A DNA stretch of 64,000 bases from Macrostomum hystrix (lineage: Eukaryota > Animalia > Platyhelminthes), in NCBI GenBank assembly GCA_950097015.1, contig CATNEN010000025.1, forward strand, positions 248,001 through 312,000, written 5' to 3'. The notes under the pieces were generated by a model. The model had not been told where the DNA came from. It searched no databases and worked only from the letters and a program-made list of their open reading frames with translations. Made by a program: the position numbers and the translations under genes. Shown here in pieces: positions 11,987 to 58,447 of the stretch (its first letter is position 1; each line of letters opens with the position of its first letter).

Positions 11987-11994
11987 CTATACCA

Positions 11995-27169: not shown

Positions 27170-29278
27170 ATGACAAACTGGCCAATTAATATGAACCACA
27201 ATGAACAAATTCAAGGTTCAAATTCTATGCAGCATTTTGTATCAGGCCAAAATCAAGAAACACATGAAACTACTGACTATGCTAATGAGCCAAGTAATGA
27301 TTCCAATATTTCTAGTTCTGCTGCTAGTTATGACACATCTTTTTCAAGCATCTCAAACATTTCTTTGGATCAATTGAATGAAGACTTGGCTATTCAAAAA
27401 GAACTTCATGATTGGGCTACAACCTGCAATATTAAGCTAGATGATTTGACTTCACTGTTGAAGATTTTGAAGAAAAGAATTCCAAGTTTGCCTACTACTG
27501 GAAAAACATTACCCAAGTCTTCTTTAGAAGATAAAGAACTTTCTAATTTTGTTGATGTTCATCCAGGCAAATATTGCCATTTTGGAGTTATCAAAGGAAT
27601 CAAGTTCATTTTCTCAACCATTAAAGGACAATCCAACTTTCAACTTGCTCAAGAATTTACTTTGTCATTGAGCATTGATGGAGTGCCTCTTTTTCAAAGT
27701 TCTGTTTCTGGACTATGGACTATTCTTGGTGCTATTAATGAAGTGCCAAACTCTGTATTCATTATTGGACTTTATTATGGAAGCAACAAGCCTGACTCTT
27801 CAAATGCATTTTTGAAACATCTTTGCCAAGATCTACTTGCTATCAGCAATGAGCCACTTTGCATTGATGGTTATCAGCTAAGTATAACTTTGAAATGGAT
27901 TGTTTGTGACATGCCAGCTAAGAAGTTTGTAAAAAATACTGCTGGTGTAACTGGCTATTTTTCGTGTGATCAATGTACTACTCGTGGGCAACACAGTGAA
28001 GTATCTAAAAGTGTTGTATTTCCAGAAACAAATGCTTTAAGGTGCACTGACCAATCATTTCGTTCTCGTGCTCAAGAAGAGCATCATCGAACAGGGTTTC
28101 CAAGCTCTGAATTTGTGTCTTTGGCAATAGACATGAATGATTCATTTACAATGGATTCATTGCATGTGCTCTACAAAGGTGTCTAATTAAAAGTTTTATT
28201 GCTTCTTCATACTGGTCCATTCCACCTGAATGGTGCTTGTGAGAAAGAATTAAGCTGCCTTTTAAATCAAATTGGAAGGTATGTTCCTTCAGACTTTCAA
28301 AGAAAACCTAAGGCATTTAAGCATATTCGACTCTGGAAGGCAACGGAACTCAGATTTTTTACTATATATCTTATTCCACTTGTGTTGCCTCGCTTTATGC
28401 CTAAGGATAACCCACGTTTGATGGATTTGTTTTTGTGCTTGCATTTAATTGCAGTGCTACTGAATAGCCAAAATGTTATCCATAACCAGGAATGCATCTT
28501 AGATAGAATATTGTGTGACTTCTACTCTTGTGTCAATGATCTTTTTGGAAATAGCTTCTACAGTCCTGTTGTGCATGGTCTTCAACACCTTGTAGAGGAC
28601 TATAAAGTGCATGGGCCCATTGAACAGTTCTCTTCATTCATCTTCGAAAATTTCAATCGCTATATCAAGAAAGCTGTTCGATCACCTCATTTGCCTTTAG
28701 AGCAAATTAGCAACAGAGTTTTGGAGACTAATCAATGCCTTGGCAGGCTGACCATTGATAATACTACCTTTCCACTGGTGTCCAGACAGCACTATACCAG
28801 GCTTTATGAATTACCAGAGTTCTGTAGGGAGCATGCTATGTTCAAGCAAGTTGTGCTAAGCAAGGGCCTGAAGCTGTCACTAAAGCAACGAGATGCTTTC
28901 TTCACTATTAGAGATAATAATGGCATGTTTAAAGCCTGCAAGTTGATCAATATTCTGCAAAATATCTCCACTCAAGAGACATTGCTAGCATATCAACAGT
29001 TCTCTTTTTATGAAAGCTTCTATAATCTACCACTGGAGTCGTCCAAATTAGGAATTTATCGCCTCTCGGGACTACAAAGGCGAATTCAAGTTTTGGATGC
29101 ACATTTTGTGCAGTCCAAGCTTTTTGCTGTGCCTCAAAAGGACTCTGAATATTATGCATGTACAGTCCTTCATACACTTCGGTACTTTACTTTTTTACAT
29201 CCTATTTTTGTGTTATTTGACTTTTATTTAGTTGAATACTTTGCTTTGTATGCTAAAATTTTCAGATGTTCTCCATGA
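27170..29278 (+). pseudogene. EnSpm transposase with one in-frame stop (TAA 28184-28186)
   Basis: ORFs 27170-28186 and 28199-29278 in the same frame; SIDGVPLFQSS, VCDMPAK, CDQC, MDSLHVLYKGV, WKATELR, VHGLQHL, FENFN, ESSKLGIY. Confidence 0.9.
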
Positions 29279-35430: not shown

Positions 35431-36290
35431 ATGGCATCAGCTTCAAAGCAAGACCTCAAACCAGCAATGCGTGGTGTCATTCGCTTCTGGATCGACAGCG
35501 GACGCACATATGCGGCTGACATGCACGCAGAGCTTGTTGCGACATATGGAGAGGCGTGCCAAGCGAACCGACTGTCCGACGGTGGGTACGCGAGTTTAAA
35601 GAGGACCGTACCTCCCTTGACGACATAGCACCTGGCCTATCTGGCTCCACGCCGGCGCAGGTGCGCGCCCGTCTGCAAAGCGTTCTCGCTGTTGAAGCTG
35701 CTGTAAAAGCTGCGCCTAAGAGCTCACTTCGCAGGCTTTCTGCCACTGTTGGCCTTTCAAATCCATATGTGCACGAGATTCTCAAGACCGATCTTGGGCT
35801 GTCCCGCCTCTTCTTTCGATGGATTCCCCGCATCCTCACGCCAGAGCAGAAGAGTCGACGTGTCGAGGTTGCGCACGCGCTGCAAGCTGCCTACACTCTC
35901 GAGGGTCAGCATTTCCTTGACAAGATCATAACGTGCGACGAGACGTGGCTGCCCTTTTTGAGTCGGCTGGCAAGCAGAAAGACGCTGAGTGGTGTGTGCG
36001 AGGCTCAAACTCGCCAACGAAGCCTCGGCAGACGTGGACAAAGAAGATCATGATCTCTCTCTTCTTCGATGGCCAAGGTCCCCTGCTGGTCGACTTTCTG
36101 CAGGATGGCAAGACCATCAACTCAGTGCACTACCAGGAACAGCTTGAGCGCCTCAAGGTGGCTGTTATTGCGAATCGACGCGGCACGTGGCGAAGCGGTC
36201 GTGCGCTTCTCCATGACAACGCTCGCCCACATACCGCCATGGCAACCATCGCAAAGCTCAACGAGATCGGGCTCGACGTGCTGGACCACG
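35431..36290 (+). pseudogene. mariner transposase pseudogene, 3' truncated
   Basis: TVRRWVREFK, RWIPRILT, ITCDETW, LLHDNARPHTA; stop at 35626-35628, frameshift near 35950, breaks at LDH before YSPDL. Confidence 0.85.
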
Positions 36291-38946
36291 TGTTGTGAGC
36301 TGCGTCTCATAACGACCTTGCCCCGACCCCTGCGTCTCCAGCCCTTCCACCCCAGCCGCCTGCTCAATCTGGTTCTGCCCGGCTCCGGCTTAGGCCACCC
36401 TCCGTTGGCGTGTTTGTCGTTTGTCGTTCGCCCATTGACTGTCCCCTATGCCGTCCTCGCTAGTCCAATCAGGCCTCTCGCCAAGGAGGCTTCTGATTGG
36501 CTAGCCGGTCTCCTTCTCTCTCTCTCTCTCTCTCGGCTTGCAGCCGACCCCAGCCCAGCCCTGTTTGCTACCACCCCAGCCCTGCGTGGCTTAGCCCTAC
36601 CCCGTCCAGCCCTATGCCCTCACCCCACCCCACGCGGTTATTTATTTGCGCGCGCTGCCCGTGGCCAGCCCCGCGCCTCCAGAGTACTAGGGCGAGAACG
36701 TTGGCGAAGCTAATACAACATTAGAAAGTAGAATCCATAATAAACTACGCAGCCTGAAGCACAATTTATTGCATGAGTTCCACGTTCAACCCCTCCCGGT
36801 AAGAAAAGCATTCACGCGTTATTTATTTCTTTATTATCGAATCTTGTTCCTCTGCCCAACCTCGGCTGCTGCCAAAAACTCACCATCATCCTTCTCCTCC
36901 AGAGTCTTCCTCGAGTCTGCGAAGTGTCGGTACGCTTCCAGACCATCATCTACCTCTCTCTTGGGCTGTCGAGTGGCTACCCGCTAAACAGTTGGAGCTA
37001 AGTGTGCACTCTACCTTAAGCAGTCCCACAGATAAAGATTTGTGGAGTTTAAAACAGCCTTTTCAGGTCCACCAATTATTTAAAGTGTTTGGTAAAGGAT
37101 AGGAAAATACATATGTTAAGTAGAGAGTAAAATGGCCTAGAATAAAAACTACCTAAAGAGATTAAATTGAGAGTGTAGGCCTGCTTACACAGGCAAAAAA
37201 TCCGTCTTTCAAATTTTTTAATCAATTGAATATTGCATTATTTTACTTCTAATAGCTCTTGAGAATGGTGTTTTAAGTGTAATAGATTAAATTACTCGTA
37301 ATAAAAATGTAATTTGAAATTCACATATTTTAGTCATTGTATATGACAATTGTCATTGTCATTAATATGATATTTCAAAGTATAACAACAACAAAAATCT
37401 ATAAGAAAATTCAGGTAGGTACTATATATACATATTTTTCTGCTTCTGCTCCTTTACCTGGACATATAAAAAGATAGCTATTTGTCTGGTTAACTGGACA
37501 AATATCCAAGATGGCTAATTGTCTGAATGTCCAATTAACAAGACAAATAACAACTGCCTAACATTTTATCCATAGTGCAAAAGGATGGGTATACTCCGGA
37601 AGTTTCTGTCGTTCACAAAGATAGCCTGTTGTACATGTCATACACAAAGAAAATGTTTGGGGTGCATGTTGTACACTGTCGTACATTAAATTATGTTTAA
37701 AGTTATGTCGCCCAAATGTGAGTTGAGTTGTCATTGTTGTACACAAAGTAAAGTGCAATTGTTAGTTGTTACAATTTATCAGGAAGCAAAATTTTAAAGT
37801 TTTTAATGTTACATTTTTACTTAATTTTCTATTCCATTAATTTAAGAAAAATATATATAGCCTTAAAAGAAATCTTGCTTTTAATTTCCTTTTTTGCAGA
37901 GTAGGGCTATCTGCAAGTTGTGTTTCACAGCGCATCTTTCAAAAAAATGGCACTCTTTAAGTGCCAGTTATGTAGACAGAATGATTTGAATTATATTGTT
38001 GCGAATAGTTTATTAAGAAAGTATTTATTATTATTTTTTATTATTAGCAAATGCTGGTAACACTCCGCGCATGAAAAAGAAATGAAGATGACTTTAAATC
38101 TAATGGAATTAACATATATTACAAACTAAGTTTAACATAAACATACTGTAAAACTAGAAAGTACTATACATACTGTAACATGTTAATGGCTAGATAAATT
38201 AAATTAATCAGTGTACCATTTTGAGGAAAAGGGACAATAATGTTACAATTTAAAAATGACTTTGTCATACAACAGTACTACGCTTATTTGATCCCTGTTG
38301 TACCATCGTACAACAGAATGAAATAGAAAATTACCTTCTGTCATACAAAAAAATCCTTTTGCTCTATGGTATTTTATATATATTCTGAATATATAGGAAT
38401 TTAGTCAATAAGAACTTGGGTTAAACTGGGCAAATTTAGTTCAGTGCAAGCTTGATAGGATTGCTTAAAACCAGTGTGTTCACAATAATAATAATAGGAA
38501 ATTAATAGTGTCTTGCTGCTTGGACAATGGACATTAAATTGCAACAAAAACCATATAATATAATTCTGAAATAAAGGAAAAAATGAATAGTGTATTATAC
38601 AGTAAAATATAGATACAAATTATTATAAAAGCCAATAGTAAATGCAGAAGTGAAATATATAATAGGAATTGATGTAGACCGAAAGCTAGTATGTTTGAAA
38701 ATGTGCGACTTTTCCTATTTTTGTTTAAATTACGTATATTTGTTTTAACGCGAAAATAGTTGTTTGAATACACTGTAAATATTTGTTTAAAATGATACGA
38801 AAATTAGTATAAATACAGGAGTGAAAGCGAGAGAGAAATTAACCTTGTTCAACGCAGTTTGAATCAAAGTTCATATACAATACTCAGAATCGTGTTCTTT
38901 CATTCTTTATAAAACATACGGAGACAAATACAATACTAAGAAAGAT

Positions 38947-39516: not shown

Positions 39517-41100
39517 AGAAAGACTCAAGAGAGAGAAGTAGGAAGTATTGCTGTATACTTGAGATCATTGGTAACGCTCTTCGGAAAGCCTATAATCAGA
39601 AATACATACATGCGATAAATTAATCGGCCAGAATAACTAAATACGCTACCTTAGACTAACTAAAGATGATATTCAAGGATAACTAAATACGCTACCAAGA
39701 AATTCTTTTAAGCATATAGAATACATTCTCAGAAATTAATTCTAAGAAACATTAACAGTAAAAAATACAACATTGTGAGAGTAAAAGTTAGAATAATAAT
39801 TAGCGCTAGAACAACTTTGGTGGTATTCAGTAGAATATTAAAATATTATAAAATAACCCTAGGACAGAATAATTTAAGCTACTTGCAGTAGCTTAATATA
39901 ACTTGCAGTTTTTACAAATAGTTTTAATGTCAGAGAGGGCCTCCAACATATTACATTTACAACCTGTAAAACGTAACAATGGATTATTTACGACAGCAAT
40001 GAGCAAGAAATTTGTTATTAAAGGAGTTGGCTTCGTTGCTTTAGTTAAAACTTTTAATAATAATACGTTGTAAATCTTGCTAATGTGTCTTGCATAAGGC
40101 GAATGTATTCATTGAATGATAAGTCACGCGGCGCAGTGGTTCAGTGCGCGAATCCCTTTCGAATTTGTAATTTTAACAAAAGCAAATCTACCAAATATAT
40201 ATATTATATTTTCTTACAAATAAAGCATAAAATTTATTTTATTAACGTTACGTTAGATCTTTCTTAAAGAATGTTACAATACTTTCCGAATTTTCAGATT
40301 TTTGCCCAGCTTTTTTCGACTCATTATTCGGTCTTTTCGGAGAGCCATTTGGGCCTCATTGGAACGCAAACAGCAATTTTCGTATAGCGCTTATATTTCA
40401 GTGCGCAGCAGTTCAGTTCTGCTCCATTTAGCTAACTATTTAGATTGATTTATTCGGAAGTCAGATTAAGACAAAAAATGAACATAAAGGCCTTCCTAAA
40501 ATCATTTTCATCTTCTCTCGTTTATAACAACGTAAACAGTGTATTTAAACGATCACGCGTATTTAAATTCACGCGCTAGCTCTGCAGCTATTTTTAGAAC
40601 TGGGAAGACCACGCTTCCTATATGGCTTTGCTCGCAAGCACTCTTTTTCTCTCGTTATTGATATTGCATTAGAGCAGCAGCAGTGTACAGTATACTGAAT
40701 GTATTGTTTCGTTCGAGATCAATTGACTGACTGATTGACACTGATTAAGACAGACTCTGTCTTATGGCATTCATTCATTTGATTTAACTTTGACTGGCGG
40801 CGGCAGCGACGACAAGCAAAAAACACGGAAAGGCAATTCGAATATTTTCTAAGCTAAAGGCTACTCGATTATATTTCGCAGAGGCTAACTAATGCTATCC
40901 AGCTGTACAATTGAATTTTTATCTCACCTCGAAGTGCGCACAGGCGGACGGGGCTGGCTACTGCTGCTTCTGATGCTTCTGCTGCGGCCCGGGGCTGGCT
41001 ACTGCTGCATGCTTCTGCTGCTACTGCTGCTTCTGCTGCGGCCGGTACAGCTGCACTGAGCTGAGGATGAGCATGGAAAAAAACAATTAGAATATAATTT

Positions 41101-41123
41101 CACATGTGCGCGCTTTATACGCT
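41101..41123. other. Half recombination-like site: spacer CACATGTG + arm CGCGCTTTATACGCT
   Basis: Same arm as the 47370-47407 site; inverted-repeat homology stops exactly at this spacer. Confidence 0.6.
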
Positions 41124-43175
41124 GCAGTAACACAGTCTAATGAATTCAATCAGCCCTCCCTCCAAGGCCTGTGCAAGTTTTCTCTGCGTGTTTTCTCTCT
41201 GTCCCGGCCCCCTTTATCTGCCCCACGGTGTTTTTGACTCACTATTTAAATATTTAAATATATTAAATACTATAAATATTGTATATATAAAATCTTAAAT
41301 GTAGCAGGCAGACAGACAGGCGGGCAGGCAGGGCGAATCACTCAAATTTAATGTTCCGACACTGAGGGCAGCCGCCGTCTCTTCCGTGCCACCGGTCTAC
41401 CGTGCAGGACTGCGTCGGCTCGTTGGGTGCTCGCCGCCACCTCACCACTTCCACCAGCCAGGCTGCTGATGAGTCCCTGGGTCGGCGGCCTAACTATGGG
41501 TCGCATCTCTTCGGCACCTGATGGCACCACAAACCGGCGGACAATGTCGCGGCTGCGAATCACCGCGCCCATCTCCGTGGCCATCTGCGCGTTGTGACCA
41601 TAGTTAAACCGGATGACAGCTGCAGATGTGCCGTGCGCTCTGGCAAACACATCTAGCTGCTCCGGCTCCATCATGAGCACTACGGCACAGAGGGTGCGAC
41701 GCCAGTGCGTGGCCACATAGTGCCGACCCAGTACTCGCTGCCCGCCTGCGCTGATCATGCGGCTCATTGCCGACTGGCTGTACACGCCGCCGAACACATC
41801 TATGAAGACCGTCGGCGACTCCGGTTGCTCGATGCCGCGAGCAGCAAGCGACGGCAAGATGTATTCGTCGTGCAGGCGCAGCAAGGCCTCGCAGAATAGA
41901 TCCGGCAGTACCATCCTGGCTGGATCGCCGGAGTGTCCGACCTTGTGCGGCACTTCACGCAGCGGCAGGACGAGGTGCGAGTGCCCAGCCAGATCGGCAG
42001 CGGACAGCGCGCTCTCCCAATCTGCACTTTGCGTGTGTTGGCGGAAAAGCTGTTTTTGGTCGGCCGACGCGTTTCGCAGAACCGAACTGTCGACCAGGTG
42101 TCGCCGTCTTAAGTATATCCACGGCAGAAGTCGCAGTGGCTGCTCGACGCTGCAGTAGAAAAGCATCTCCTGCACTATCCGCCGCAGACATACCATCCGG
42201 CGACTGAAGGCGCCATCATCTGCTTCGCCGTTGTCTTTGGTGTCATCAGCGATGCCATTAGCGACCACACCTGCTGCCTGCATGCCCCATTCGCCGTCGA
42301 CTGGCAGTGAAGACCAGCTGTGTCTTTGGAGCATGATGAAAAAGCGGTCTCGACGGGCGAACACGGCATCAACCTCGTCCACGTTGACGTAGGTGTCCAT
42401 GAAGGCCACCTGCCGCTCATTGTGGCCAAGCTTGTAGACGGCTTGTATAGTATAAATGTGGTTGCGTTTACTTCTAGTAGATAGCAGCACGAAACCAAAT
42501 AGAACTAACTGTCATTAATGCAGCTGCTGTGCAGCTAGCTCACCTGCTGGATGGCGCGGACGTTGCCGAACTCGCCGCGAGCCTGCTGCACCACGCTGCT
42601 AAGGCGGGCGATGAGAGCCTGCTCAGCCGCCAGCGGGTTGTTGGCCTTCTGCGCCAACTGCAGTCTCCAGCAGACTCCACTGCAGACAAGGTCGCCGTCC
42701 TCAATATCAGCAGTAGCAGTAGCAGCAGCATCTGCGCGGGCGGCGTCAGCCGAGGGGGAGTCGATGCTGCAGAACAGCTCGGCCTCGCGCAAGCCAATGG
42801 CGGCCATGATGGCATTGGCGCCTCGCAGGCCCCTTACGCGCAGCCAGCCCTCCATGCAGCGACAGATGCTGACCAACTCCTGGCACTTTCGCGCCGCTGT
42901 CGACTGAGCCAGCTGCATGGCGTCACTGACTGTTTCGGCGCTGAAGCAGTCCTGCACCCTGTCCGGCTGCAGCAGCAGGTCTGCAAGCGAGATGCCCGCT
43001 CGCTGCCAGGTTCGCAGAAGCGTCGCGCTCACCGACTTACTTATGTCGCGCCAACGCTGCTGGTGGCACAAGTTGGCCGCAATCCTGGCCCGCGATGGGT
43101 CCCTCCACCACAGCTCCCGCAGGCGTTCCACCGTCGCGGAGATGCTGGGCCGGTCACCCAACGGCTGCAGCAGCT
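41101..43175. repeat. Left arm of ~2-kb inverted repeat (partner 45623-47392)
   Basis: Reverse-complement near-identity with 45623-47392; identical translated ORFs on opposite strands. Confidence 0.95.
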
Positions 43176-44083
43176 TCTGATCGGCTGTCGACGCTTCCTG
43201 CTGCAGTTCTGCTCCGAAGATGGACAATCGAAGCCGGTCGAATTCGGCATTAGCCAGCCTTCTCTTTGCAGCAGTCCACTTTGCTGCAGCTGCTCGACGC
43301 TGCCTCGGCGGGGTAGCTGCCAGCTTCACTAGCGGCCTCTGTGCAGCTGACAGCACAGCCGATGACGTGCTGGGACGACAAAGTGCTGCCTTGGTGGCCT
43401 GCACCGCCAACTGCAGACAGGCAGCCGAATAGGAAGACTCTGCTGCCACCGTCTGGACCGTCGGCAGCGTCCGCATTCTGATGCTGGTTCCGGGCAGCAG
43501 CTCCTGCAAGCCGACATCGTAGTCTCCATCCTCGTCATCGTCAGCGACTACGGGGGCCTCCTGTGAGGACATCAGCAGCAGCGGCGCAGTCGGGTCAAAT
43601 AGGCGTCGCCGGACGGCTGGACGGCTGGCTGACGACAGCCGAGCACTGGCCGCTGACTGTCGACCGTCAACGGACGGCGCGGCGATGCTGTAGAGCTCGG
43701 CCAACAGAGACCCACCCTCGTATTCAGCTGGTTCTGCCTCTGAAGGCAGCTGCGGAGGCGGTGGTGGCATCTGCTGGACAACTGTGCTGCCTTGCTGTCC
43801 TACGCAGCACCTTGCCGCAGGCTGGGCACGCGTGTACATGCTTAGTTTTTGCTGAGCTGCGCGTGTGGGTGCTGCACGTCAGGCAGAGCCAGACCATCTG
43901 GGCACGCTGCTTGGCTGACGCCGCTGCCCAAGATGCCTCGGACGGCCGCACCTTGACTGGTGCATCCTCGAGTCGGAATTGGCGCACAGCCTCCTCCGCG
44001 TGCCTCCTCAGGAAGTGGCGTTTCGGGTGCGTCTGCGGTCTGCCGTCGCCACAGAAGATGCAGCACGACTCGTTGTCTGTCAT
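41348..44083 (-). CDS. Zinc-finger / tyrosine recombinase fusion gene, one intron (donor 42543), probable frameshift near 43760
   Basis: N-terminal CIFC..H..H, CLTC..H..C, CPAC..HxC fingers; helical middle; catalytic exon with EQPLR, HKVG, VFID, ATHWRR, RAHGTS, FNY in YR R-K-(H)xxR-H-Y order. Confidence 0.7.
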
Positions 44084-44353
44084 AGCTATTGTTATTACAA
44101 ATTGATGCAGTGCCATATAGGTGTATGAACTGAATTCAGTATGCATGCTCAATCAACACATGCTATATACAGTCCGTTGTGCGTGCACAATGCCTAAATA
44201 AATATATGTATATGCCCCTATATCCCATTATGGAATACACTATTTTAAGTGTTGTGCGAGCACATTGTCCCGTACTGTTGTCATCGCTGCTGCATTTATA
44301 TTCGATTGAGTGCTGCGTTGAGCACATAAATAACTTATTTTTCTGTTGTCCCT

Positions 44354-44400
<47 letters not shown>

Positions 44401-44401
44401 C
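44354..44401. repeat. (AAC)16 microsatellite
   Basis: Direct reading. Confidence 0.95.
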
Positions 44402-45183
44402 CCGGCTGTAAAAAATTATAAGCCTCTGAATCATTGATAAATTTTAAAAACATAATTTTTCATTTGCAATGTAGTACAATCAGCGTGTGTGCCAATCCGT
44501 GCCCTGCACTATATACCACAGATTCTATATTATATAGGTAATATAGAATCTGTGCTATATACTACATTTGTTTACGCTTTAGCAAACCCCTCGAAAAGCT
44601 CAGACATTCGATTTTCCAGTGAACAGCACACCCACCCCCTCCAACTCGATCTTCCTCCCTCAAAAGCAGTGCCGAGCCAGCATCAGACCTGCAGATGGAA
44701 AGTGAGACGACTTCGATCGTCTTTAGTCTATGGTCACAGGGGTGAAATTATCGATTGGTTGAAGCAGACACACTGCTTCTCTTTTTCAAGGCAGAGCAGT
44801 GGCCCTTCCACACCCTTTTACCATAGACTATGAATTTAGAGACAGGGCCGCCCCTTCGATTTCGAAGGTTTAAAGAAAGGGTGGCAAGCCAAGTAGCAGT
44901 CTTTTAGTTTTAGCCCGGCCCAACTGCTCGATCGAACTGCAGCTTACAGTCAAATATAATTCAGAGATTCATCCACAATTCGAATCAACAGTCAGCCTTC
45001 TATTTGCTTGGACTATATTAAAACAGGCTACAGATATAATATCGACAGAGAGCCACAGGATCTATTATTATGTCAACAGCGAGCATTACGATCTAATATA
45101 TTTCTACGCAGCTCAGAACTGCATTACACTTACAGAGATTACAAATATATTATTATTATAGAGAACTGCATATTATATATACA

Positions 45184-45300
45184 AAGACTAATTAAAGGGC
45201 CTAATATATATAAAGACTAATTAAAGGGCCTATTATATATACAAATACTAATTGCAGGGCCTATTATATATACTAAGACTAATTAAAGGGCCTATTATAT
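45184..45300. repeat. About four copies of a ~30-bp AT-rich unit (AAGACTAATTAAAGGGCCTATTATATAT)
   Basis: Direct reading. Confidence 0.8.
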
Positions 45301-45622
45301 TAACCCAGCTTGTAATGCATATTTATGAGCAGAGACTTACACGGCCTATTTTAAATACAGAGCCTTTTTCTTATTTGCAGCGCATCTTCACTCTCCAGCA
45401 GCAGCATAAGCAGCACCAGCAGTAGCATCAGAAGCAGCAGTAGCAGCAGAAGCAGCAGTATCCAGCCCCGGGCCGCAGCAGAAGCAGCAGAAGCAGCAGC
45501 CAGCAGAAGCAGCAGCTGTAGCAGCATCAGTAGCAGCTCGACAGCCCCCGTCCGCCTGTGCCCACTTCGAGGTGAGATAAAAATTCAATTGTACAGCTGG
45601 ATAGCGAAGCCCGTGCCACTAG

Positions 45623-47145
45623 AGCTGCTGCAGCCGTTGGGTGACCGGCCCAGCATCTCCGCAACGGTGGAACGCCTGCGGGAGCTGTGGTGGAGGGACC
45701 CATCGCGGGCCAGGATTGCGGCCAACTTGTGCCACCAGCAGCGTTGGCGCGACATAAGTAAGTCGGTGGGCGCGACGCTTCTGCGAACCTGGCAGCGAGC
45801 GGGCATCTCGCTTGCAGACCTGCTGCTGCAGCCGGACAGGGTGCAGGACTGCTTCAGCGCCGAAACAGTCAGTGACGCCATGCAGCTGGCTCAGTCGACA
45901 GCGGCGCGAAAGTGTCAGGAGTTGGTCAGCATCTGTCGCTGCATGGAGGGCTGGCTGCGCGTAAGGGGCCTGCGAGGCGCCAATGCCATCATGGCCGCCA
46001 TTGGCTTGCGCGAGGCCGAGCTGTTCTGCAGCATCGACTCCCCCTCGGCTGACGCCGCCCGCGCAGATGCTGCTGCTACTGCTACTGCTGATATTGAGGA
46101 CGGCGACCTTGTCTGCAGTGGAGTCTGCTGGAGACTGCAGTTGGCGCAGAAGGCCAACAACCCGCTGGCGGCTGAGCAGGCTCTCATCGCCCGCCTTAGC
46201 AGCGTGGTGCAGCAGGCTCGCGGCGAGTTCGGCAACGTCCGCGCCATCCAGCAGGTGAGCTAGCTGCACAGCAGCTGCATTAATGACAGTTAGTTCTATT
46301 TGGTTTCGTGCTGCTATCTACTAGAAGTAAACGCAACCACATTTATACTATGCAAGCCGTCTACAAGCTTGGCCACAATGAGCGGCAGGTGGCCTTCATG
46401 GACACCTACGTCAACGTGGACGAGGTTGATGCCGTGTTCGCCCGTTTTCCGCCAACACACGCAAAGTGCAGATTGGGAGAGCGCGCTGTCCGCTGCCGAT
46501 CTGGCTGGGCACTCGCACCTCGTCCTGCCGCTGCGTGAAGTGCCGCACAAGGTCGGACACTCCGGCGATCCAGCCAGGATGGTACTGCCGGATCTATTCT
46601 GCGAGGCCTTGCTGCGCCTGCACGACGAATACATCTTGCCGTCGCTTGCTGCTCGCGGCATCGAGCAACCGGAGTCGCCGACGGTCTTCATAGATGTGTT
46701 CGGCGGCGTGTACAGCCAGTCGGCAATGAGCCGCATGATCAGCGCAGGCGGGCAGCGAGTACTGGGTCGGCACTATGTGGCCACGCACTGGCGTCGCACC
46801 CTCTGTGCCGTAGTGCTCATGATGGAGCCGGAGCAGCTAGATGTGTTTGCCAGAGCGCACGGCACATCTGCAGCTGTCATTAGGTTCAACTATGGTCACA
46901 ACGCGCAGATGGCCACGGAGATGGGCGCGGTGATTCGCAGCCGCGACATTATCCGCCGGTTTGTGGTGCCATCAGGTGCCGAAGAGATGCGACCCATAGT
47001 TAGGCCGCCGACCCAGGGCCTCATCAGCAGCCTGGCTGGTGGAAGTGGTGAGGTGGCGGCGAGCACCCAACGAGCCGACGCAGTCCTGCACGGTAGACCG
47101 GTGGCACGGAAGAGACGGCGGCTGCCCTCAGTGTCGGAACATTAA
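45623..47145 (+). pseudogene. Partial inverted copy of the YR gene lacking the zinc fingers and first catalytic Arg
   Basis: Starts mid-gene; 305-bp deletion is frameshifting and removes EQPLR. Confidence 0.85.
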
Positions 47146-47392
47146 ATTTGAGTGATTCGCCCTGCCTGCCCGCCTGTCTGTCTGCCTGCTACATTTAAGA
47201 TTTTATATATACAATATTTATAGTATTTAATATATTTAAATATTTAAATAGTGAGTCAAAAACACCGTGGGGCAGATAAAGGGGGCCGGGACAGAGAGAA
47301 AACACGCAGAGAAAACTTGCACAGGCCTTGGAGGGAGGGCTGATTGAATTCATTAGACTGTGTTACTGCAGCGTATAAAGCGCGCACATATG
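45623..47392. repeat. Right arm of the inverted repeat, with a 305-bp deletion at 46445
   Basis: Equals reverse complement of 41101-43175 minus 42048-42352; a few SNPs. Confidence 0.95.
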
Positions 47393-47407
47393 CGCGCTTT
47401 ATACGCT
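47370..47407. other. Palindromic recombination-like site, 15-bp arms, 8-bp spacer CACATATG
   Basis: AGCGTATAAAGCGCG-CACATATG-CGCGCTTTATACGCT. Confidence 0.7.
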
Positions 47408-47609
47408 AATGTTTTTATAATTGATTATATGCTATAGTTAAGGATATTTATTGTATTTGATTGATTACTCTCGTTGATAATAGTATACTTTATTGTTTTT
47501 GTTGATAGAATTATTTAATTAGCCATAGATTTATCTGACATTTATTAAACAAATGCTGCTAACTGCTCTACTTATAGTAGTCAAGCAAGCAATTTAATTT
47601 TAGATTTAG

Positions 47610-47725
47610 GTACAGTTCATAGTGCGCGCACAATACTTAAAAAATATAAGGATTGTTGTTCTAAAATTAGAGCAGACATGCCTTATATATATTTTTAGGG
47701 AATGTGCGCGCACTACAGACTGTAC
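47610..47725. repeat. 116-bp hairpin module (GTACAGTTCATAGTGCGCGCACA ... TGTGCGCGCACTACAGACTGTAC)
   Basis: 23-bp inverted arms with 3 mismatches; near copy at 52903-53038; TA|CAGT ends compatible with a Tc1-type MITE. Confidence 0.8.
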
Positions 47726-48571
47726 ACGTTGAATTTCTTAGAATTTAGCGCGAATTTGAAATTTTAGTTTCTTATAAAATTTATAAATAACTGAGTAGCA
47801 CTATATGCAGCTGTTAATTGCCGTTATAAGCTCGTATTATATATTATATGTATAGCTTTTTGCGTCCATCCAAATTGTATTTTAATGCACACATTACTAC
47901 ATGTATTTTAATTGCTTGTTGTTGCAGATGCCACTTGTTGATTCTCATCTTAAATTAGTTATTTGCCGCTTTTTCATATCCATACGTACCGTCTACATGT
48001 AGTTCTTGATCGAATGCTTATTCTTGATTTATGACTATATTTATTCACATATATGCATGCAGTCAGCTCTTCAATTCATATATACAAGTATACTTACTCT
48101 CGTTGCTACAGCTGAATTATTATAAATTATAATAACACAATTAGCGCCCAAATAAGCACATAACAACTGCGTGTGTGTGAAATTATTTTTAGACTACTAT
48201 TAATAAAGGAATGCGATAAACTCAAGACATAGACAAAGGTTAGGCACATAGAAACTAAAGGAAGGACTGTGCTGCCGTGGCTCATCTTGAGCACACAAGT
48301 CAAAGAGAGCTAGCTCGCGCTGATTGATTTCTCTATGCCAATCGATTAAGACAGACTCGATCGTTCCCAAGCTACTTTGATTTTCAATCCCAACTCTATT
48401 AATCAACCAAATCAACTCCTTCGTGATCTACTGTTTCGTTTCGACTGCCCCCTACACTGTTCCGATTACTCCGCTCCAGCTGCGACCCCAACGACGACGA
48501 CTGCATTTAAAGTGATTTTTATCTGCGCTCCACAAGGTAGGCAATCATTGTTAATTATTCTAGCTGCCCAT

Positions 48572-51500
48572 CTATCTAACTTGTTGGAGAGCAGCAACAG
48601 CAACAACAACAACTATTTGTTGGCGGTGAGGGATTAAAAAGTTTAATGGAGCCGGTACAGAAAAAGAAAAAGCCACGGAGTGGCGCGCGGTGTCCAGGCC
48701 GTCAAACATGAAGTCATTACCGCCGAAGCGCTTAATGACCGGGCAGAATACGCGCTCCTGGCCCAAGTGGCGCTCGACGGCGGTGGTCTTGCCGACTCCC
48801 GACGGCCCATACAGATAGACAACGCCCGACTGGTGGCGAAGGGCTGTGCAGACAGCCTCTCGGAGCGGGCACGAGTTCCGGTTGTCGGCAGCCTCGGTGG
48901 AGCATGCGGAACAGCCGGCGAGCTGCTCCCTGCGAATCCGGCGCTGGCGCTGCACATCTCTGAAAACCCCCAGCAACGTGGCGCGCATCTGCTGGTGGGC
49001 CAACAAGACGCCGTCAGTCTGGTCGGGCAGGTTGGCAGTCAGCGGGTAGGACAGCGCCCACCGAGTCGCTTGCACCAGCATGCTGCACTGCGTGGCGCCG
49101 ATCCCGATCAGCAGCGGGTAGCCGTCGTGCTGCGTCAGGCTCCGCAGCACACTGTCTGGCGAACGGACGCCGCACAGCGTCAGGGTGGTCCGGTCGGGCA
49201 CCACAAAGCAGCGTCCCTCGTCTCGGCTAGGCAGCAGGCTGAACAGCAGCTCGTATAGATGCCAGCCGGCCGCGTTGGTCTCCAGGCGCACGAAGCCGGA
49301 CAGAGTGCGGTGTGGCCGATACTCGCTATGCTGCTGCTGTTGGTGTTGCTCCATCTCGTCGACGGAGAGCGGGTCAGCGACTAGCCGCCGGTCGCAGAAT
49401 TCATCCATGCCGACGCAGAGGCCCGGGCTGGACGCCAGGACGAGCTCGACACAGTGTGCCTCCAGAGCCTCGCCCAGATATACCTTGGCACGACCCGTTT
49501 ATGTAGGCAGCATGGAAACAGTGGATGCCAGCTGGTTATACGAGGGTCACTCAGAAAGTCTTTAGCCTGAACAAGAAAACAGCAACATATGAAATAAAAA
49601 ACCATTACAACTGCTCGAAGTACTCTCCCCCCGCATTGATACAGGCTTGTATCCTGTGGAACCAGCTGTCGAAGCACTGCCGCCAATCCTCATCCCGGAG
49701 CTCCCCGATGACGTCTTTGAACTCATTCACAGCTTCTTCCGGCGAATAAAAAATCTGGCCCTTTAATATCTCCTTGCACTTCAGGAATAAAAAAAAGTCG
49801 CACGGTGCCAGGTCTGGACTGTATACGCAGGGTGAGTCATCAGCTGGACACCACAGTCGGCCAGAAACTCGAGAGTTTGAGCTGCCGTGTGCGCACTGGC
49901 ATTGTCGTGGTGCAGAAGCACCCCACGCATTCCACACCTTGGGCGCCTCTGGCTCACAGCAGAAAAAACTTTGGGCAGGCAAACCGTTGTGTACCAGTCA
50001 GCGGTGACTGTCAGGCGATCTTCCAGTGAAACGGAAGCCACATGTCCAGTGCGCATGAAGAAGCAGGCCACCATCTGCTTGCCGGCACTCCGGTTGCGTC
50101 GAAACTTGGTTGGGCTGTCCTCGTCTCTGAAGGTCCACATGGATGACTGGCGCTTGTTTTCGGGGTCGTATTGATAAATCCAGGTCTCATCTCCCGTGAG
50201 GATGTCCCAGATACGCCGGCTGGTCCCAGATTCGAATTTCTGCAGCATAAATCGGCACCAAGCCACCCGGGTGTCCCTCTGCTCGTCCGACAGCTGATGG
50301 GGGATCCACCGGGAAGCCAGCTTCCGCACTCCGAGGTGTTCGTGCAGAATGGTGTGCACACTCCCCGATCCAATGCCCATCTCCTGCTGGATCTGCTGGT
50401 AGGTCACTCGCCGGTCAGCGTCAATCATGCTGGACACAGCGCAGATATTTTCTGGGGTCACTGCGTCGCAGGGTCTCCCGGATCGATGCTCATCTTCGAG
50501 GCTTTCTCGACCTCGGCGAAACTCAGCGAACCAGTTTTTGACGGTTGCGTATGAAGGACACAGATGAGCGAAAACGTCTTGTAAAGTTTGAAATGAATCG
50601 GCCGGCGACTTGCCTTGCTTGAAATGCAAGTACATCATAGCTCTGAAGTCACGATTTTCCAGCTTCATTGTGCAATTGAACGGCGCAAGGGGTGAACTGA
50701 CTTTGGCTCACTGCAGTGGACTCAAAAGTAACTGCTTCTGTTTGAAAATGTAGCTATAAGACTTTAAAAAGGTGGTCTTTACCATAGACAAATTTCATGC
50801 TTCTGCGTCTCGTGGATCATACTCAGGCTAAAGACTTTCTGAGTGACCCTCGTATGATTCAAAGCTTAAGAACAAAGCAAGTGACTCACCGACGAAGCGC
50901 ACGTTGTCGATGTGGAAGACGTGCAAATAGCGGCGCCCGGTCAGAATCCCGCTGTCCTCTGGCAGTCGCTCCGCAGGAGCAGCACCGGTCATTGCGAGCG
51001 GCCGGCTGCCGGAGCGCGTCACCGTGAACTGCTGCTGTGCTGCTGCCGCATTAAGCAGCGGGTTTTGGCCCAGCCGTCGCACGCCTCGGCCGCCTCGTTG
51101 TCCTCTGGCGCCGCCGACCGCGCTCCTGCTCGCCTCGCTGTCCCCCTGCTGTTGCTGCAGGAAGTGCATATACTGTGCCGCAGACGCCGGCGGACTGTAG
51201 CTGAATGCCATCAGCGAGGGAGGACGCTCGAGCTGCACCTGCTCTTGTTGCTGCAGCGGCTGCGGTGTCATTATGCGCCACCACTCCTGGCCGACAGGGA
51301 CGGACTGGCTGGCCTCATTCATAGCGGCCACCACCGCTGCTGCGAATGCCGCTGTGCCAGGCGACACCACGTAGGCCGTCGTCTCATCTTCCGGACGCTG
51401 AGACGGTGTGGTCTTGGCGACTGCAAGTCGTCGGCCATCGGGCTGCGAGTCTGGCACCATGGCGCCCACAATGGAGCAGTCGGCAGCAGCAGCAACAGCA

Positions 51501-52552
51501 GGAGCAGTCGTTTCGAGCCGCTGAAAACGGAACCTCCGCCTCCCTGGCTGCCGTTGTTGGTCGGCCGCGACTTGAGGCGGTTTCGGCACCGTGCTGGCGA
51601 CCTCCTCCATTTCCGCATCAGCGCCCGACGGTGGGGGATCTGCAGCGACTGACAGCGCAACGGTGGACGCCTCGTAGTCCAGCAGTGCCTGCAGAGCATC
51701 GCGGTCGTCGCTATTAATCGCCTCCTGCTCGTTAGGCTCCGATGGCTCCGCCTTTGGGCCGCTACTGCGAGTTGCCGCTGTCGGCCTGCTTTTATCGTGG
51801 CGCTCGTCGTCGACGTCCTCAATCTCGATGACGACGGGGCTGCGAGGCTGTAGAGCTGCCCTGGACCTGTCGGGCGCGTCAGACGCCGCACCGTCGCTGT
51901 CGTCACTGTTGCCAGCAGCCTGTCGCCCGACGTGCCTGATCACTGCCGGCGACGACCATCTGCTGGTGGCCTTCTTGGCACTCCGGTGCTGATCTCCGAG
52001 CCAAGCCAGCAGGCTCCCTTTTGGCGCAGTCGAGGCTGAGGCTGCCATCGCGTGGAAGATTGGTGCGTAGACGGTCGTGTTATTTGCCGATGTACTGGCA
52101 GGTGGTGGCTGCTGATTGCCTGCTGCCGCTGGCTGGGATACGACGCGGATGGACACAATCGACGCGTTCAGCAGGTCCACACTGCCTGATGCTGTGGACA
52201 TCTGGTCATTGGCAGGCTGCTGCTCTTCGGTGTTCAGGCGCATGACACCGCTCAGGGGCAGCAGGCTGAAGTCGTCAGCGTCACTGCTGATGTTAGCCAC
52301 CGCTGCTGTCTGCACTGGACGGCACCGCTTTGGGCCTGGCGTAGATTCTGCAGCTGCTGCTGCTGCCGCTGCATTGACAATGCGACGTTGAGAGGGAGCG
52401 CTCTTTCTTTTTCGCTGTGATGGTGGCTGGTGAGTTGATGACGCTACCGGCCCGGCGGAGTTGCTATCTTGGGCAGCTCTCTCAAACTCGTCCAGCGCGG
52501 CCGCAATTCGTTCATCGTCGCTGTCGCAGCCGGTTGAAAAATTGAACGACAT
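48572..52552 (-). pseudogene. Large spliced gene: low-complexity N-terminus + possible Rep-like domain + SF3-like P-loop ATPase, disrupted
   Basis: Exon 1 52552-50890 (GTGAGT donor), exon 2 from 49531; frameshift near 49485; VVYLYGPSGVGKTT followed by FMFDGLD as in Rep SF3 helicases; Walker B not found (truncated near 48660). Confidence 0.55.
49541..50852 (-). mobile_element. mariner (DD34D) transposon, 1312 bp, inserted in a 44-nt intron
   Basis: 30-bp perfect TIR CGAGGGTCACTCAGAAAGTCTTTAGCCTGA, TA TSD; transposase 50668-49605 with TGDETW, HHDNAS, YSPDLAPCDF and one 2-bp frameshift near 49825. Confidence 0.95.
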
Positions 52553-52770
52553 TCTGTGCTTCCGCGGGTTAATTATAGGCGCGTTCAAATTTGGATGTAT
52601 GAAAATGAGCAGGCTGCAGAAAGCCAACGCAGTCCCAGGTTCTCAACTTCAACTGGGTGCAACATGGTGGGATTCCCTATTAATAGAGTCCCAAGTACAT
52701 CCCAAGGAGAAGGAGCAGGCTATTTAGGATGAGCAGCAGATAGTACCACTGTTACTAATTCTTCTAGTAG

Positions 52771-52804
52771 ATCAATATGCGCGCACATGTGCGCGCATAT
52801 TGAT
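52771..52804. other. Perfect 34-bp palindrome with 13-8-13 layout
   Basis: ATCAATATGCGCG-CACATGTG-CGCGCATATTGAT. Confidence 0.75.
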
Positions 52805-52902
52805 TTTATAGCTTTAAACTGATAGATTCAGATTCTATTAATAGGTGCTTAATTAGGTTAATTCGGATCCCGGTTAAGTTGATAGTGTACTTTTAGCGAG
52901 AA

Positions 52903-53038
52903 GTACAGTTCATAGTGCGCGCACATTACTTAAAAATATATAAGGACTTGCCTGCTATTCTTAGGTAGATAAGCAGCTCGAATCGAATCGTCTTATATAT
53001 ATATTTCTTAGGGATTGTGCGCGCACCACGAACTGTAC
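52903..53038. repeat. Second hairpin module
   Basis: Left arm identical to 47610-47632; right arm TGTGCGCGCACCACGAACTGTAC. Confidence 0.8.
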
Positions 53039-53201
53039 TCTGCTGTCTATTTTTAGGTTATCCAAAATAAACTTCCCGGTATCGAGTTGGATCTGCCAAC
53101 TTAGTTGATACTAAACCATTCTTTTATTGGTGCAGAGTTGGTTTGGGTTCACAAACAGGGATAAGTTATTTAAACTGTCTAGCTAAGTCTTTTTGCTGCT
53201 G

Positions 53202-53620
53202 CTACTGCTCCATTCGATATTGGCGACTCCGGAGCAACTCTCGCAGTCTTGCCCTTTGCTGCACGCCGCGCCAGTAGTCCAGCCCGTGTAGAATGTGCTG
53301 CAGCTCCAAACAGGTGTCCTCCACCAGGCCTAGCAGCTGGCCAAGTCGAAAGCCTCGTTCTCTGTTAGGCAGGTCACCTCCAGGATGGTCTCGTAGCCCG
53401 CAGCTGTCTGGTGTTGTAGCAGCCAGTCCAGGAGGCTCTTCAGCAGGGTGTGTAGCTGGGTGGCATTCAGCTCAGCATTCGGGCAGTGGCGCTGCAGGCA
53501 GGTCAGCTGCTCCAGTCGTCCTCGGTGCGCCAGGAACGGGGCCAGGCAGGCGATGTCGCATCTGGCCAGGAGTGCCACGATGGCCGGCGAGCCGAACAGC
53601 GCCACAGGATGAGCATTCAT
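53202..53620 (-). pseudogene. ~138-aa GC-rich gene with one frameshift near 53340; possibly death-fold-like
   Basis: MNAHPV..LAPFL..LLDWLLQHQTAAGYETILEV..AFDL / GQLLGLVEDTCLELQ..LDYWRGVQQRARLRELLRS; codon usage like neighbouring YR and helicase genes. Confidence 0.45.
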
Positions 53621-54002
53621 CGTGGTTCTACGCACCCAACAATGTCGTGAGTGCAGCAGCAACGCGTCTAACACTAGCTAATACCGCTATAGTCACTATA
53701 TATCCCACAGTATATTGGAAAAATTTCGATCGATCATCACAGTGCGAAATGGGTCCCTAATTCAGGTGCGGGCAGTGGCATGGGGCTGCAGTCATCATGT
53801 AACGTAAGATAATACCCTGTATGAAACTCATTTCATAGAATGTTCGAACTGCATTCCGCTGCTGTCACAACTGCGCCATTTGAAACAAAATTATCATGAC
53901 TGGTATATATTTAAGTATTCAATCAGCCAACCGATCTCGCACCTAACACTGCAACAATTGCTATCAGTAGTAATCAATTTAGAATTATAGCAAAGCGGGT
54001 CG

Positions 54003-54505
54003 CGGGCTCTTTTGCTGCATAAGAAAGCATTAAGGGTTGAGTCGGGCTCTTTTGCTGCATAAGAAAGCATTAAGGGTTGAGTCGGGCTCTTTTGCTGCAT
54101 AAGAAAGCATTAAGGGTTGAGTCGGGCTCTTTTGCTGCATAAGAAAACATTAAGGGTTGAGTCGGGCTCTTTTGCTGCATAAGAAAGCATTAAGGGTTGA
54201 GTCGGGCTCTTTTGCTGCATAAGAAAACATTAAGGGTTGAGTCGGGCTCTTTTGCTGCATAAGAAAACATTAAGGGTTGAGTCGGGCTCTTTTGCTGCAT
54301 AAGAAAGCATTAAGGGTTGAGTCGGGCTCTTTTGCTGCATAAGAAAGCATTAAGGGTTGAGTCGGGCTCTTTTGCTGCATAAGAAAGCATTAAGGGTTGA
54401 GTCGGGCTCTTTTGCTGCATAAGAAAGCATTAAGGGTTGAGTCGGGCTCTTTTGCTGCATAAGAAAACATTAAGGGTTGAGTCGGGCTCTTTTGCTGCAT
54501 AAGAA
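54003..54505. repeat. 40-bp tandem repeat, ~12.6 copies
   Basis: Unit TAAGGGTTGAGTCGGGCTCTTTTGCTGCATAAGAAAGCAT with one G/A variant site. Confidence 0.97.
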
Positions 54506-56362: not shown

Positions 56363-57592
56363 TCAGTAGTAGGGGTTAGCAGTTAGCAGCCCCCACATTG
56401 TTTTCCTTGTTGAAAACAACCCTTTGTTCACTGTAGAGATAAGAGAAATGGCGGGCCTATCTCTTTGCGCTGCGTACGGCTGCAGTGGAGTGGAGAGGCC
56501 GATGGAGGGTGGGTGAGGTGTGAGGTGGGAGTTGGAGATAAGGGCCCCAGTCCTGGCAGACTGGCTGCTTTTCAGGTAGTGCAAGTACTCTCGCACAAAT
56601 GAGTTGTTTTCGGGTGTGAATGCACCGTGGCACATGGTTTCCCCGCCTTTCTTTAGAGCTAGCTGGCTGAGGTTGAAGCTCTGGAACTCGAAGGGGCAGG
56701 TGTGATGATTCCCGTTGAAGGCTCGGTGGCTCACGAAAGCCAGCATGATGAACTTAGGGAGTTTTCCGTGGGTAAAGCCTTCAATGTTCTTCGACTGGAT
56801 TCTCTGGGGCAGAATAAAGTTCTGCATTTCGGCTCGCTCCATAGGATAGAGCGCATTCTGGTTGGTCAGTCCCTGATCATGGGCTAGGCTGATGTGAGAA
56901 GCCACCTTGACTCGGCGGAGATGCAGGATGCAGTGGGAGATTTCCATGCGGTAGGCTGTGTTGTTTGTGACCGGGGTTCTGATGGCAAATGCAGCGTCGC
57001 TGGGCACCAACTTGATGTGCAGGTGCAGGTTGTTCAGCAGGAACATGGGGCACTGGAAGATGTCGCTGAACAACGGTCCGACATACTCCACCCAGCGGGA
57101 CAGCCTGTGGCTCTCCATGTGCGCCTCTGCAGCGGAGTCAGGTTGCAGGAATCCAGCGGGGTAGAACTTCAGCTGCTGGGCGTCTGAGGAGCTCATGAGA
57201 GCTTTGAAATAGGCATGGTAGGGATAGAGCTGGTCTCCCCCGGACACAACTCGCTGGTTAATGCTCACAATGACATCAGAGAAGAGCGTAGACAGGACGA
57301 AGTTTTCAGGGTGCACATCACTGTCTCGGCGCTCTGTCAGCTCTCCTTCAGCGTTCAGAACATTCTCCCTCAGCAAGCCCCCATCCAGTCGGACTAGGCG
57401 GCAGCGAATGTACAGGAAAGAATTCAATAGTTCGGTGTATTCGTCAGCTGATGGGTGGCAATCGAATTCGATGGGTGCATTTGCAGCAATTGAGTTCACG
57501 GGGTGAATATCGACATAGGAGGATTTGTCAATGGCAGTCTGCAGCGCAGGAGCCTTGAACAAATCGAGCCTTGGGTTGAATCCATAAGCCAT
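56363..57592 (-). pseudogene. Polinton major capsid protein (PY/hexon-like), C-terminally truncated and reading into the terminus
   Basis: LDLF..LQTAI..YVDIHP..PIEF..EY..L..VHPENFVLSTLFSDV..YPYHAY..GPLFSDIF..GKLPKFIMLAFVSHRAFNG..PFEFQ pattern. Confidence 0.88.
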
Positions 57593-57656
57593 GTCTACGA
57601 CAAAGAGTCCAGCACGCGCTTCACCGTTTTCCTGCTGACTTTTCGCTTCCTCTTGC

Positions 57657-57983
57657 TTACCGTTTTGCCCTTTGCTTTGCTCTCTCCTTTCTTAGGTTTC
57701 TTTCTACCTGCATTGTTCCGTTTCCTTGATTTTTTCCCCTTCTTGCCATTTTGGCGAGAGGTGTCTTCTTTATTATCTTTTTCCTAGAAACTTTAGCATT
57801 CAACTGTCTTCTTTTGCTAACGCTTTTGCCAGCCGAGGCCAACTGAGATGCATGTGCTGGTGAAGTTGCTGGAGGAGGTTGATATGTCATGATCCCTGGA
57901 AAACTTCCGCACCCATAGGGCGCAGATTTATCGCTTCCATTTCGAGTTCCAGAGTACTGCCGGATCATCTGTTGATAGTTCAT
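57657..57983 (-). CDS. Small basic protein upstream of MCP (Polinton core/PM-like)
   Basis: MNYQQMIRQYSG..GCGSFPG..YQ then K/R-rich tail; syntenic position. Confidence 0.45.
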   Translation of the reverse strand: MNYQQMIRQYSGTRNGSDKSAPYGCGSFPGIMTYQPPPATSPAHASQLASAGKSVSKRRQLNAKVSRKKIIKKTPLAKMARRGKNQGNGTMQVERNLRKERAKQRAKR

Positions 57984-58041
57984 CGAATAAGTTTCTCCCG
58001 GATCTGAATCGTGAGCAAAACAGGACTGCAGCTCTGAGCAG

Positions 58042-58375
58042 TCAGAGGGGACCAAATGTATCCCGCAGTTGAATTCGAATGCTGTGTAGAAAATTTGCTT
58101 TCTGGATTGGGAAGAAAAGTGTTTTCTTAAACACTTTGCTGAAGTAGCAGCCCCATTCAGCATTAGAACTGATGTTCACAGTTCGCAGCAGGGAGTCCCA
58201 GTTGCAGCTTGTTGACTCAACAAGGCTGCAGCGCACATTGACCAGGTTGGTGGGCGGACAGCCGATGCAACAGCTTGACACTTGGCACCCAGGTGGGATT
58301 TTGATTGACTGGTTTCCAAATCCCAACCACTGCGAGCCCCGAGGCGGCACGAAATTGGTACCAGACCGGATCGCG
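58042..58375 (-). pseudogene. Polinton minor capsid protein (penton) C-terminal part
   Basis: WLGF..VNVRCSLVE..SLLRTVNI..FFPIQK..IRIQLRDTFGP motif; flanked by stops. Confidence 0.65.
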
Positions 58376-58447
58376 GCTTAATTCACTGTCCTGCAATGGT
58401 ATGCGCCCAGATGGCGACGACGAAGCCACACTGATTTCCTTGTCGGA

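Follow-up and report, generated by a model that had tools for sequence, protein, structure and literature searches.

The window analysed here, a stretch of 64,000 nucleotides from the flatworm Macrostomum hystrix (contig CATNEN010000025.1), carries on its minus strand, at 41348..44083, what is probably the decayed copy of a divergent Crypton-like tyrosine-recombinase element. We judge it reasonably likely that what survives there is a spliced gene, now broken, whose product is predicted to have served a Crypton-like DNA transposon as its tyrosine recombinase, with an active site reduced to Arg-Lys-Arg-Tyr.

A single gene in three ORFs

Three minus-strand ORFs of the window (43724-44152, 42535-43878 and 41348-42511 in its ORF listing), none of which gives a significant match in a Pfam scan, lie in a block of 56-64% G+C surrounded by A+T-rich DNA. 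The initial annotation had joined them into one intron-containing gene, and the elements on which it relied are in place: the ATG at 44083, the GT donor at 42543 and, in the third ORF, all five proposed motifs (EQPLR, HKVG, ATHWRR, AHGTS and FNY). The three ORFs are real as well, except that the middle one, given as 42535-43839, extends to 43878, 43839 being an internal point. The reconstruction is right in outline, because P0011 (A0A1I8G604), a 1084-aa gene model of M. lignano with zinc fingers, a helical domain and a catalytic domain, holds counterparts of all three ORFs in the same order (pairwise E 4e-5 for the zinc-finger ORF, a weak 0.069 for the middle ORF and 2e-26 for the catalytic ORF), and P0006, independently of P0011, links the middle and catalytic parts in a single chain (E 8e-10).

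On the minus strand the gene comprises a 5' coding piece with the ATG and the fingers (43771..44083), placed by the P0011 alignment and by silent differences; a low-complexity linker and helical domain matched in P0011 and P0006 (42544..43770), the helical domain itself (~43130-42550) being by its position a likely core-binding domain; a GT-AG intron (42442..42543); and a catalytic-domain exon defined by alignment and fold model (41348..42441). The fusion of zinc fingers to a recombinase-type catalytic domain is supported by the single chain of P0011. Only two of the three fingers claimed have a counterpart there, namely finger 1, of C2H2 type with the pattern C-x2-C-x11-H-x4-H (44062-44000, minus strand), and finger 3, of C2HC type (43828-43778, minus strand). 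The middle CxxC (43885-43832, minus strand) has none, lacks a clean fourth ligand and would need a cysteine that finger 3 also uses.

Relatives and copies

A phmmer search of 1.84 billion representatives with the catalytic part returned seven matches (E 3.5e-18 to 1.2e-5, 28-40% identity), two in M. lignano clusters and five among proteins from short contigs. These relatives are few and distant, in agreement with the proposal of a distinct family. Searches with the catalytic domain assigned it to no family by Pfam, PHROGs, NCBIfam or PDB sequences, and Pfam scans found neither DUF3504, GCR1_C nor DUF3435 in the window ORFs or the seven relatives. Five queries of IMG/VR gave no relative, nor did searches of metagenome-contig loci, which hence offer no second genomic context. 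Word-index protein searches also returned no match, and are uninformative since phmmer did find relatives; a tblastn match in a phage record (E 7) was rejected as chance. The family escapes standard domain libraries. The literature covered, outside whose scope lie Repbase Reports, Kojima 2020 and the supplementary alignments of PMC3212892 and PMC10871703, gives no account of it in flatworms.

A second copy lies inverted at 45623..47392 (plus strand), 99.4% identical to the first. It is 5'-truncated, beginning at the equivalent of 43175, and a 305-base internal deletion removes the first catalytic Arg; together with an out-of-frame acceptor this deletion produces at 46294-47145 (plus strand) an open frame that lacks that residue. 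Copy 1 is followed (40894-41060), and copy 2 preceded (45355-45605), by a CAG-rich exon-like segment that has both an acceptor and a donor. Every run covers this segment very deeply, and contigs of runs X1 and X3 join it to copy 2. At 44505-44566 there is an A+T-rich hairpin, probably a MITE, which is absent from a deeper X1 contig whose joint skips 115 bases.

In M. lignano the recombinase family has six near-identical entries, which could be alleles or genome duplicates. Several M. lignano fragments of the family (P0004, P0005, P0008-P0010 and P0012) bear the UniRef label 'Ras-GEF domain-containing protein', which no Pfam scan supports. Locus-specific joints have a depth of ~80-100 in run X1, whereas the gene itself is mostly at 530-1240, and depth remains at several hundred throughout the gene and on both its sides; this hints at several copies and at an element longer than the gene, and yields no copy number. 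With two copies in the window, the six M. lignano entries and this depth, the gene is likely multi-copy. Element ends, a target site and an empty site were sought and none was found.

Palindromes, inverted repeats and the neighbouring genes

At the 3' end of copy 2 lies P1 (47370..47407), a palindrome with 16-base arms and a 6-base centre that is a candidate core site, and the 3' end of copy 1 carries half of a palindromic site at a duplication breakpoint (41101..41122, minus strand). Duplication has made these two out of one site, and may have created P1 as a fold-back. P2 (52771..52804), a perfect 34-base palindrome, has the same core as P1 and is of uncertain membership in the element. Three inverted-repeat units, mutually related and all with GTGCNCGCAC boxes, accompany these sites: the diverged H3 (44168..44275, minus strand), with two GTGCNCGCAC boxes and 85 bases upstream of the ATG, and H1 (47610..47725) and H2 (52903..53038), whose membership in the element is likewise uncertain. 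The ends of H1-H3 read TA/CAG..CTG/TA, like those of Tc1 MITEs, and the three units may be Tc1-type MITEs.

Hairpins with arms of at least 14 bases number three in 40-54 kb and none in 15 shuffles; the GTGCNCGCAC box motif has 10 matches at six places where 0.36 are expected, and the palindrome core motif 5 where 0.15 are expected. Nearly all matches of the motif scan of the window (12 of 13) fall within 41106-53019, and none of the six GTGCNCGCAC boxes or three GCGCGCACATRTG sites falls outside 41.1-53.0 kb, where they surround the recombinase gene and a P-loop NTPase gene. Recombinase sites typically consist of two 11-13-base arms around 6-8 bases (PMC3212892), a layout that the palindromes at the 3' end of the gene and nearby fit, and these are candidate recombination sites.

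We would picture an intact copy as spliced to give one protein of roughly 900 residues, whose zinc fingers and helical domain would bind the GCGCGCAC boxes, and whose Tyr, helped by two Arg and one Lys, would attack the palindromic site at the edges of its six-base centre. Leaving as a circle, the element would then re-insert, as has been proposed for Cryptons (PMC3212892).

The NTPase gene (48572..52642, minus strand) lies between H1 and H2, is split by a mariner and is possibly part of the same element. This invites another reading, which we consider unlikely: the recombinase gene would belong to a larger multi-gene element or virus-derived island together with the NTPase gene, and its product would resolve replicated or hairpin ends at the palindromes, with or without integration. 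Besides the boxes and sites that surround both genes, the two resemble each other in their low-complexity front parts and GTGAG donors; P2 is perfectly palindromic, a site of this sort, with a 6-base palindrome at its centre, is described in phaeoviruses (PMC13236599), and the best viral matches in the fold searches described below come from eukaryotic DNA viruses. Against it, the spacers between the P and H units give no convincing alignment, the NTPase has P-loop matches only, five IMG/VR queries yielded no relative, and the capsid-like block (56.4-59.0 kb) comes with a 41-base inverted repeat of its own. For a resolvase in particular, the fold matches listed include no telomere resolvase and there is no TelN profile match. 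A bolder version, which we regard as quite improbable, is a new kind of multi-gene flatworm mobile element in which a zinc-finger recombinase whose active site is histidine-free and topoisomerase-like, acting on GCGCGCAC palindromes beside a Rep-like P-loop replication gene, would excise gene cassettes lying between the palindromes or resolve hairpin ends.

As to the neighbours themselves, the mariner (49538-50855, with 33-base perfect terminal repeats) sits in a likely intron of the NTPase gene; the front part of that gene is long and of low complexity, and its GTGAGT donor lies near 50885. HUH-like and Walker motifs of the NTPase resemble those of CRESS Rep/SF3 proteins, and the matches found are generic AAA only. 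Beyond H2 a small, frameshifted, G+C-rich ORF (53094-53677, minus strand) has its best match in phrog_21857 (E 0.002). Two ORFs at 56363-58870 (minus strand), which we take to be Polinton-like major and minor capsid ORFs, have no Pfam match; they are truncated, and a perfect 41-base inverted repeat encloses them (56388-56428 and 58980-59020), as if the block had been captured by a DNA transposon. The window also contains tandem arrays (54003-54505, of 40 bases; 63088-63594, of ~25; 45171-45300, of 31) and transposon debris detected by the Pfam scan (11976-15673, 20403-22154, 27041-29278, 18832-19356 and 35520-36300), made up of a LINE with endonuclease and RT, a piggyBac-type transposase, CACTA-like ORFs and Tc1/mariner fragments.

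Fold and active site of the catalytic part

A model of the catalytic part from a single sequence was useless (pLDDT 35), and that from a nine-sequence alignment reached a mean pLDDT of 60 and a pTM of 0.64, with pLDDT below 50 over residues 101-177, which hold Arg-I and Lys. In a fold search of 48,161 chains all of the top nine rows (human, vaccinia, variola and bacterial topoisomerase IB, XerH, XerA, Cre and staphylococcal integrase) were recombinases or topoisomerases IB, with Z 5.9-6.9 and 161-174 residues aligned, the next being spectrin repeats (Z 5.5, 92 residues). A second search likewise gave only this superfamily at ranks 1-33, and the best rows of both had Z 5.9-7.1 and rmsd 4-5.4 over 161-179 aligned residues. 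Foldseek placed XerA and Cre first, ahead of topoisomerases (best E 0.06, not significant). At the head of the viral models stood those of Tetraselmis virus 1, Hyperionvirus, phage integrases and Heterosigma virus (E 0.01-0.02). Atlas features scored 0.95-0.96, and two of the three top clusters carried PF00589 (17% and 63%). No single fold match is significant (best Foldseek E 0.06 and 0.01; Z below 8); taken as a set, these individually weak matches are consistent and support the tyrosine-recombinase-type fold that had been proposed. Neither a telomere resolvase nor Flp is among the fold matches listed, an absence that excludes neither. Profile comparison gave weak matches to Cre, with Arg-I on Cre R173 (E 0.03), and none to lambda Int or TelN, the 80 lambda loci being 99-100% identical and so too alike for a diverse recombinase profile. 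We therefore assign the catalytic part, with moderate confidence based on the model, to the tyrosine recombinase/topoisomerase IB superfamily fold.

The putative catalytic residues of copy 1 are Arg at 42133, Lys at 41944, Thr in the place of His-II at 41710, Arg at 41701, Thr in the place of His/Trp-III at 41629 and Tyr at 41602 (all minus strand). Six members of the family, when anchored on the last Tyr, share the pattern [TYMS]-x-x-R-R followed 24 residues on by Thr-Ser and 9 later by Tyr, spacings (24 and 9) that compare with 23 and 9 in Cre and 22 and 9 in lambda Int, where the corresponding residues are His-x-x-Arg then Trp, and His then His, respectively. Arg-II, Thr and Tyr are invariant in all six, and Arg-I and Lys are each kept in the four alignment rows that cover them, so that Arg-I, Lys, Arg-II and Tyr occur in the order and spacing of the superfamily. 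HDLRRT is a common tyrosine recombinase pattern, and the favoured register of the family agrees with it and with the helix start in the model, for which reason the His of ATHWRR would not be catalytic; this His is not conserved either, being Asp in four members and Thr in one. None of the six has His-II of HxxR in that register, and one has it in the alternative register built on the second Arg (spacing 23), where His occurs in the window protein only. Nine residues before Tyr all six have Thr, not His or Trp; in the helix layout of the model this Thr falls within the turn between helices L and M, and Tyr comes where helix M ends. The predicted active site thus reads R-K-x-R-T-Y, from which both usual histidines appear to have been lost.

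The motif set of metazoan tyrosine recombinases is HKT / TxxRK / MxHS / YY. The claim that the window gene deviates from it applies to Thr at His/Trp-III, found in all six members, and fails elsewhere: THWRR fits TxxR[KR], HK is kept and YY is present in P0011. On the aligned sequences, this Thr is the sole new deviation. Cre strictly requires only Tyr and Lys, and all but five substitutions of its His289 are still active, whereas Trp315 changed to Gly or Ala leaves no detectable in vitro activity (PMC2943603). Thr at His/Trp-III may therefore impair recombination, and by analogy activity of an intact family member is plausible but not assured.

The same features admit the idea, to our minds improbable, that instead of a working recombinase the gene encodes an enzyme resembling topoisomerase IB, or a domesticated DNA-binding protein whose catalysis is weakened. 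Human, vaccinia and bacterial topoisomerase IB tie with the recombinases at the top of the fold rows, and topoisomerase IB has no equivalent of His-II (PMC2943603), as the window family lacks both histidines; yet Foldseek places XerA and Cre before the topoisomerases. Domestication has befallen animal Crypton domains repeatedly, but the DUF3504 proteins concerned lose most of the R-H-R-Y tetrad (PMC3212892), whereas here Arg, Lys, Arg and Tyr persist at ~30% identity, and the window copies are decaying and rearranged.

Decay of copy 1

To return to the decayed recombinase gene that we favour, its break in frame, initially placed near 43760, is real and maps to ~43771, coinciding with a short direct repeat (43765..43776, minus strand). 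Both X1 contigs extending from the fingers to 43771 (depth 441 and 262) go on with other letters, and in X2 two contigs diverge from the window at this point while one (depth 4.9) matches across. The window junction, being present in that X2 contig, is not only an assembly error, and the break is most likely a deletion private to copy 1, a minority allele. Mutation and programmed frameshifting had both been offered for the overlap of the ORFs, and mutation is favoured.

The proposed intron is supported by one joint, of 102 bases with GT..AG (42441/42544), in an X3 contig that starts it exactly at the predicted donor; run X3 is guessed to be DNA, so that the joint may represent spliced RNA or an intron-less DNA copy. 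The acceptor is out of frame in copy 1, where it leads to a stop after 88 codons, and its sequence in the deeper X1 and X2 contigs differs from the window; homology to the relatives begins just upstream of the YKLG motif. This contig, the only spliced-looking one, is of the copy 2 type, because it seems to carry the 305-base deletion (525+89+34 = its 648 bases).

Differences from other copies were taken from the best-supported coding rows of 241, plus 8 from break-site contigs. Silent changes make up 19 of these 34 listed differences where 25% would be expected (P 1e-4), among them 8 of 10 in the catalytic exon and 4 of 6 in the 5' coding piece; the frames of the family were therefore under selection. 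The frameshift and the out-of-frame acceptor of copy 1 are likely decay and not recoding. That the gene works and is read through by programmed ribosomal frameshifting is very improbable and largely refuted, for although the overlap is real and its junction occurs in one X2 contig, the deeper contigs have other sequence at the site, P0011 is continuous where copy 1 breaks, and copy 1 has, besides its acceptor, lost ~65-75 bases that an X2 contig retains near 43170.

Significance

Animal tyrosine recombinases are few, and the portions of the literature surveyed describe no Crypton-type animal recombinase with a biochemically defined site. A natural R-K-R-Y family that lacks both histidines would probe how closely a recombinase active site can, by reduction, approach that of topoisomerase IB, and the palindromes close by offer a concrete candidate substrate. 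The gene also marks a repeat family missed by standard domain libraries. Interest is limited by the fact that copy 1 is dead and that its zinc-finger fusion and intron have parallels elsewhere.

Comparison with known systems

Linked reverse transcriptase and RNase H, as in DIRS, Ngaro and VIPER elements, are absent, the only RT match among 27 ORFs being LINE-type and 26 kb off (11976-14795). Starship captains are defined by DUF3435, to which there is no match. TelN gave no profile match; P2 is nonetheless a perfect palindrome. Type IB topoisomerases resemble the window family in their equal fold score and in lacking His-II, and differ in that the family has no Pfam topoisomerase match and its window copies are repeated and decaying. 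The top predicted-structure matches (E 0.01-0.03) are to recombinases encoded by Polinton-like and giant viruses (Tetraselmis virus 1, Heterosigma akashiwo virus and phaeoviruses), whereas the window gene is spliced and zinc-fingered and has no linked capsid or packaging genes shown, the capsid-like ORF 9 kb from copy 2 lying inside its own inverted repeat.

Zinc-finger fusions and introns in recombinases have precedent. Recombinases with such fusions or several exons are described for a DIRS class (PMC3537659). The telomere- and rDNA-targeting recombinases of nimaviruses combine a C2H2 finger with a helical (SAM-like) and a catalytic domain, and some are multi-exon, with only five of seven key residues located (PMC10871703); the window has neither nimavirus genes nor telomere repeats, and the likeness is drawn from domain descriptions.

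Like CryptonA and CryptonI, the window family has an animal host, a tyrosine recombinase as apparently the sole mobilising enzyme, and neither an adjacent reverse transcriptase nor visible terminal inverted repeats (PMC3212892). It differs from CryptonA, CryptonF, CryptonS and CryptonI in matching neither DUF3504 nor GCR1_C and in its R-H-R-Y tetrad, which is not intact, His being absent, and from Cryptons in its N-terminal zinc fingers and palindromic candidate sites. CryptonV and CryptonH have zinc fingers in front. Neither a protein of these two types nor an animal HKT-type recombinase was reached by phmmer among the 1.84 billion representatives, and the comparison uses motif sets in place of Repbase sequences; on that basis Thr-Ser replaces His-Ser in the window family, which shares with CryptonV, CryptonH and animal HKT-type recombinases HK, TxxR[KR] and a late Tyr (YY in P0011).
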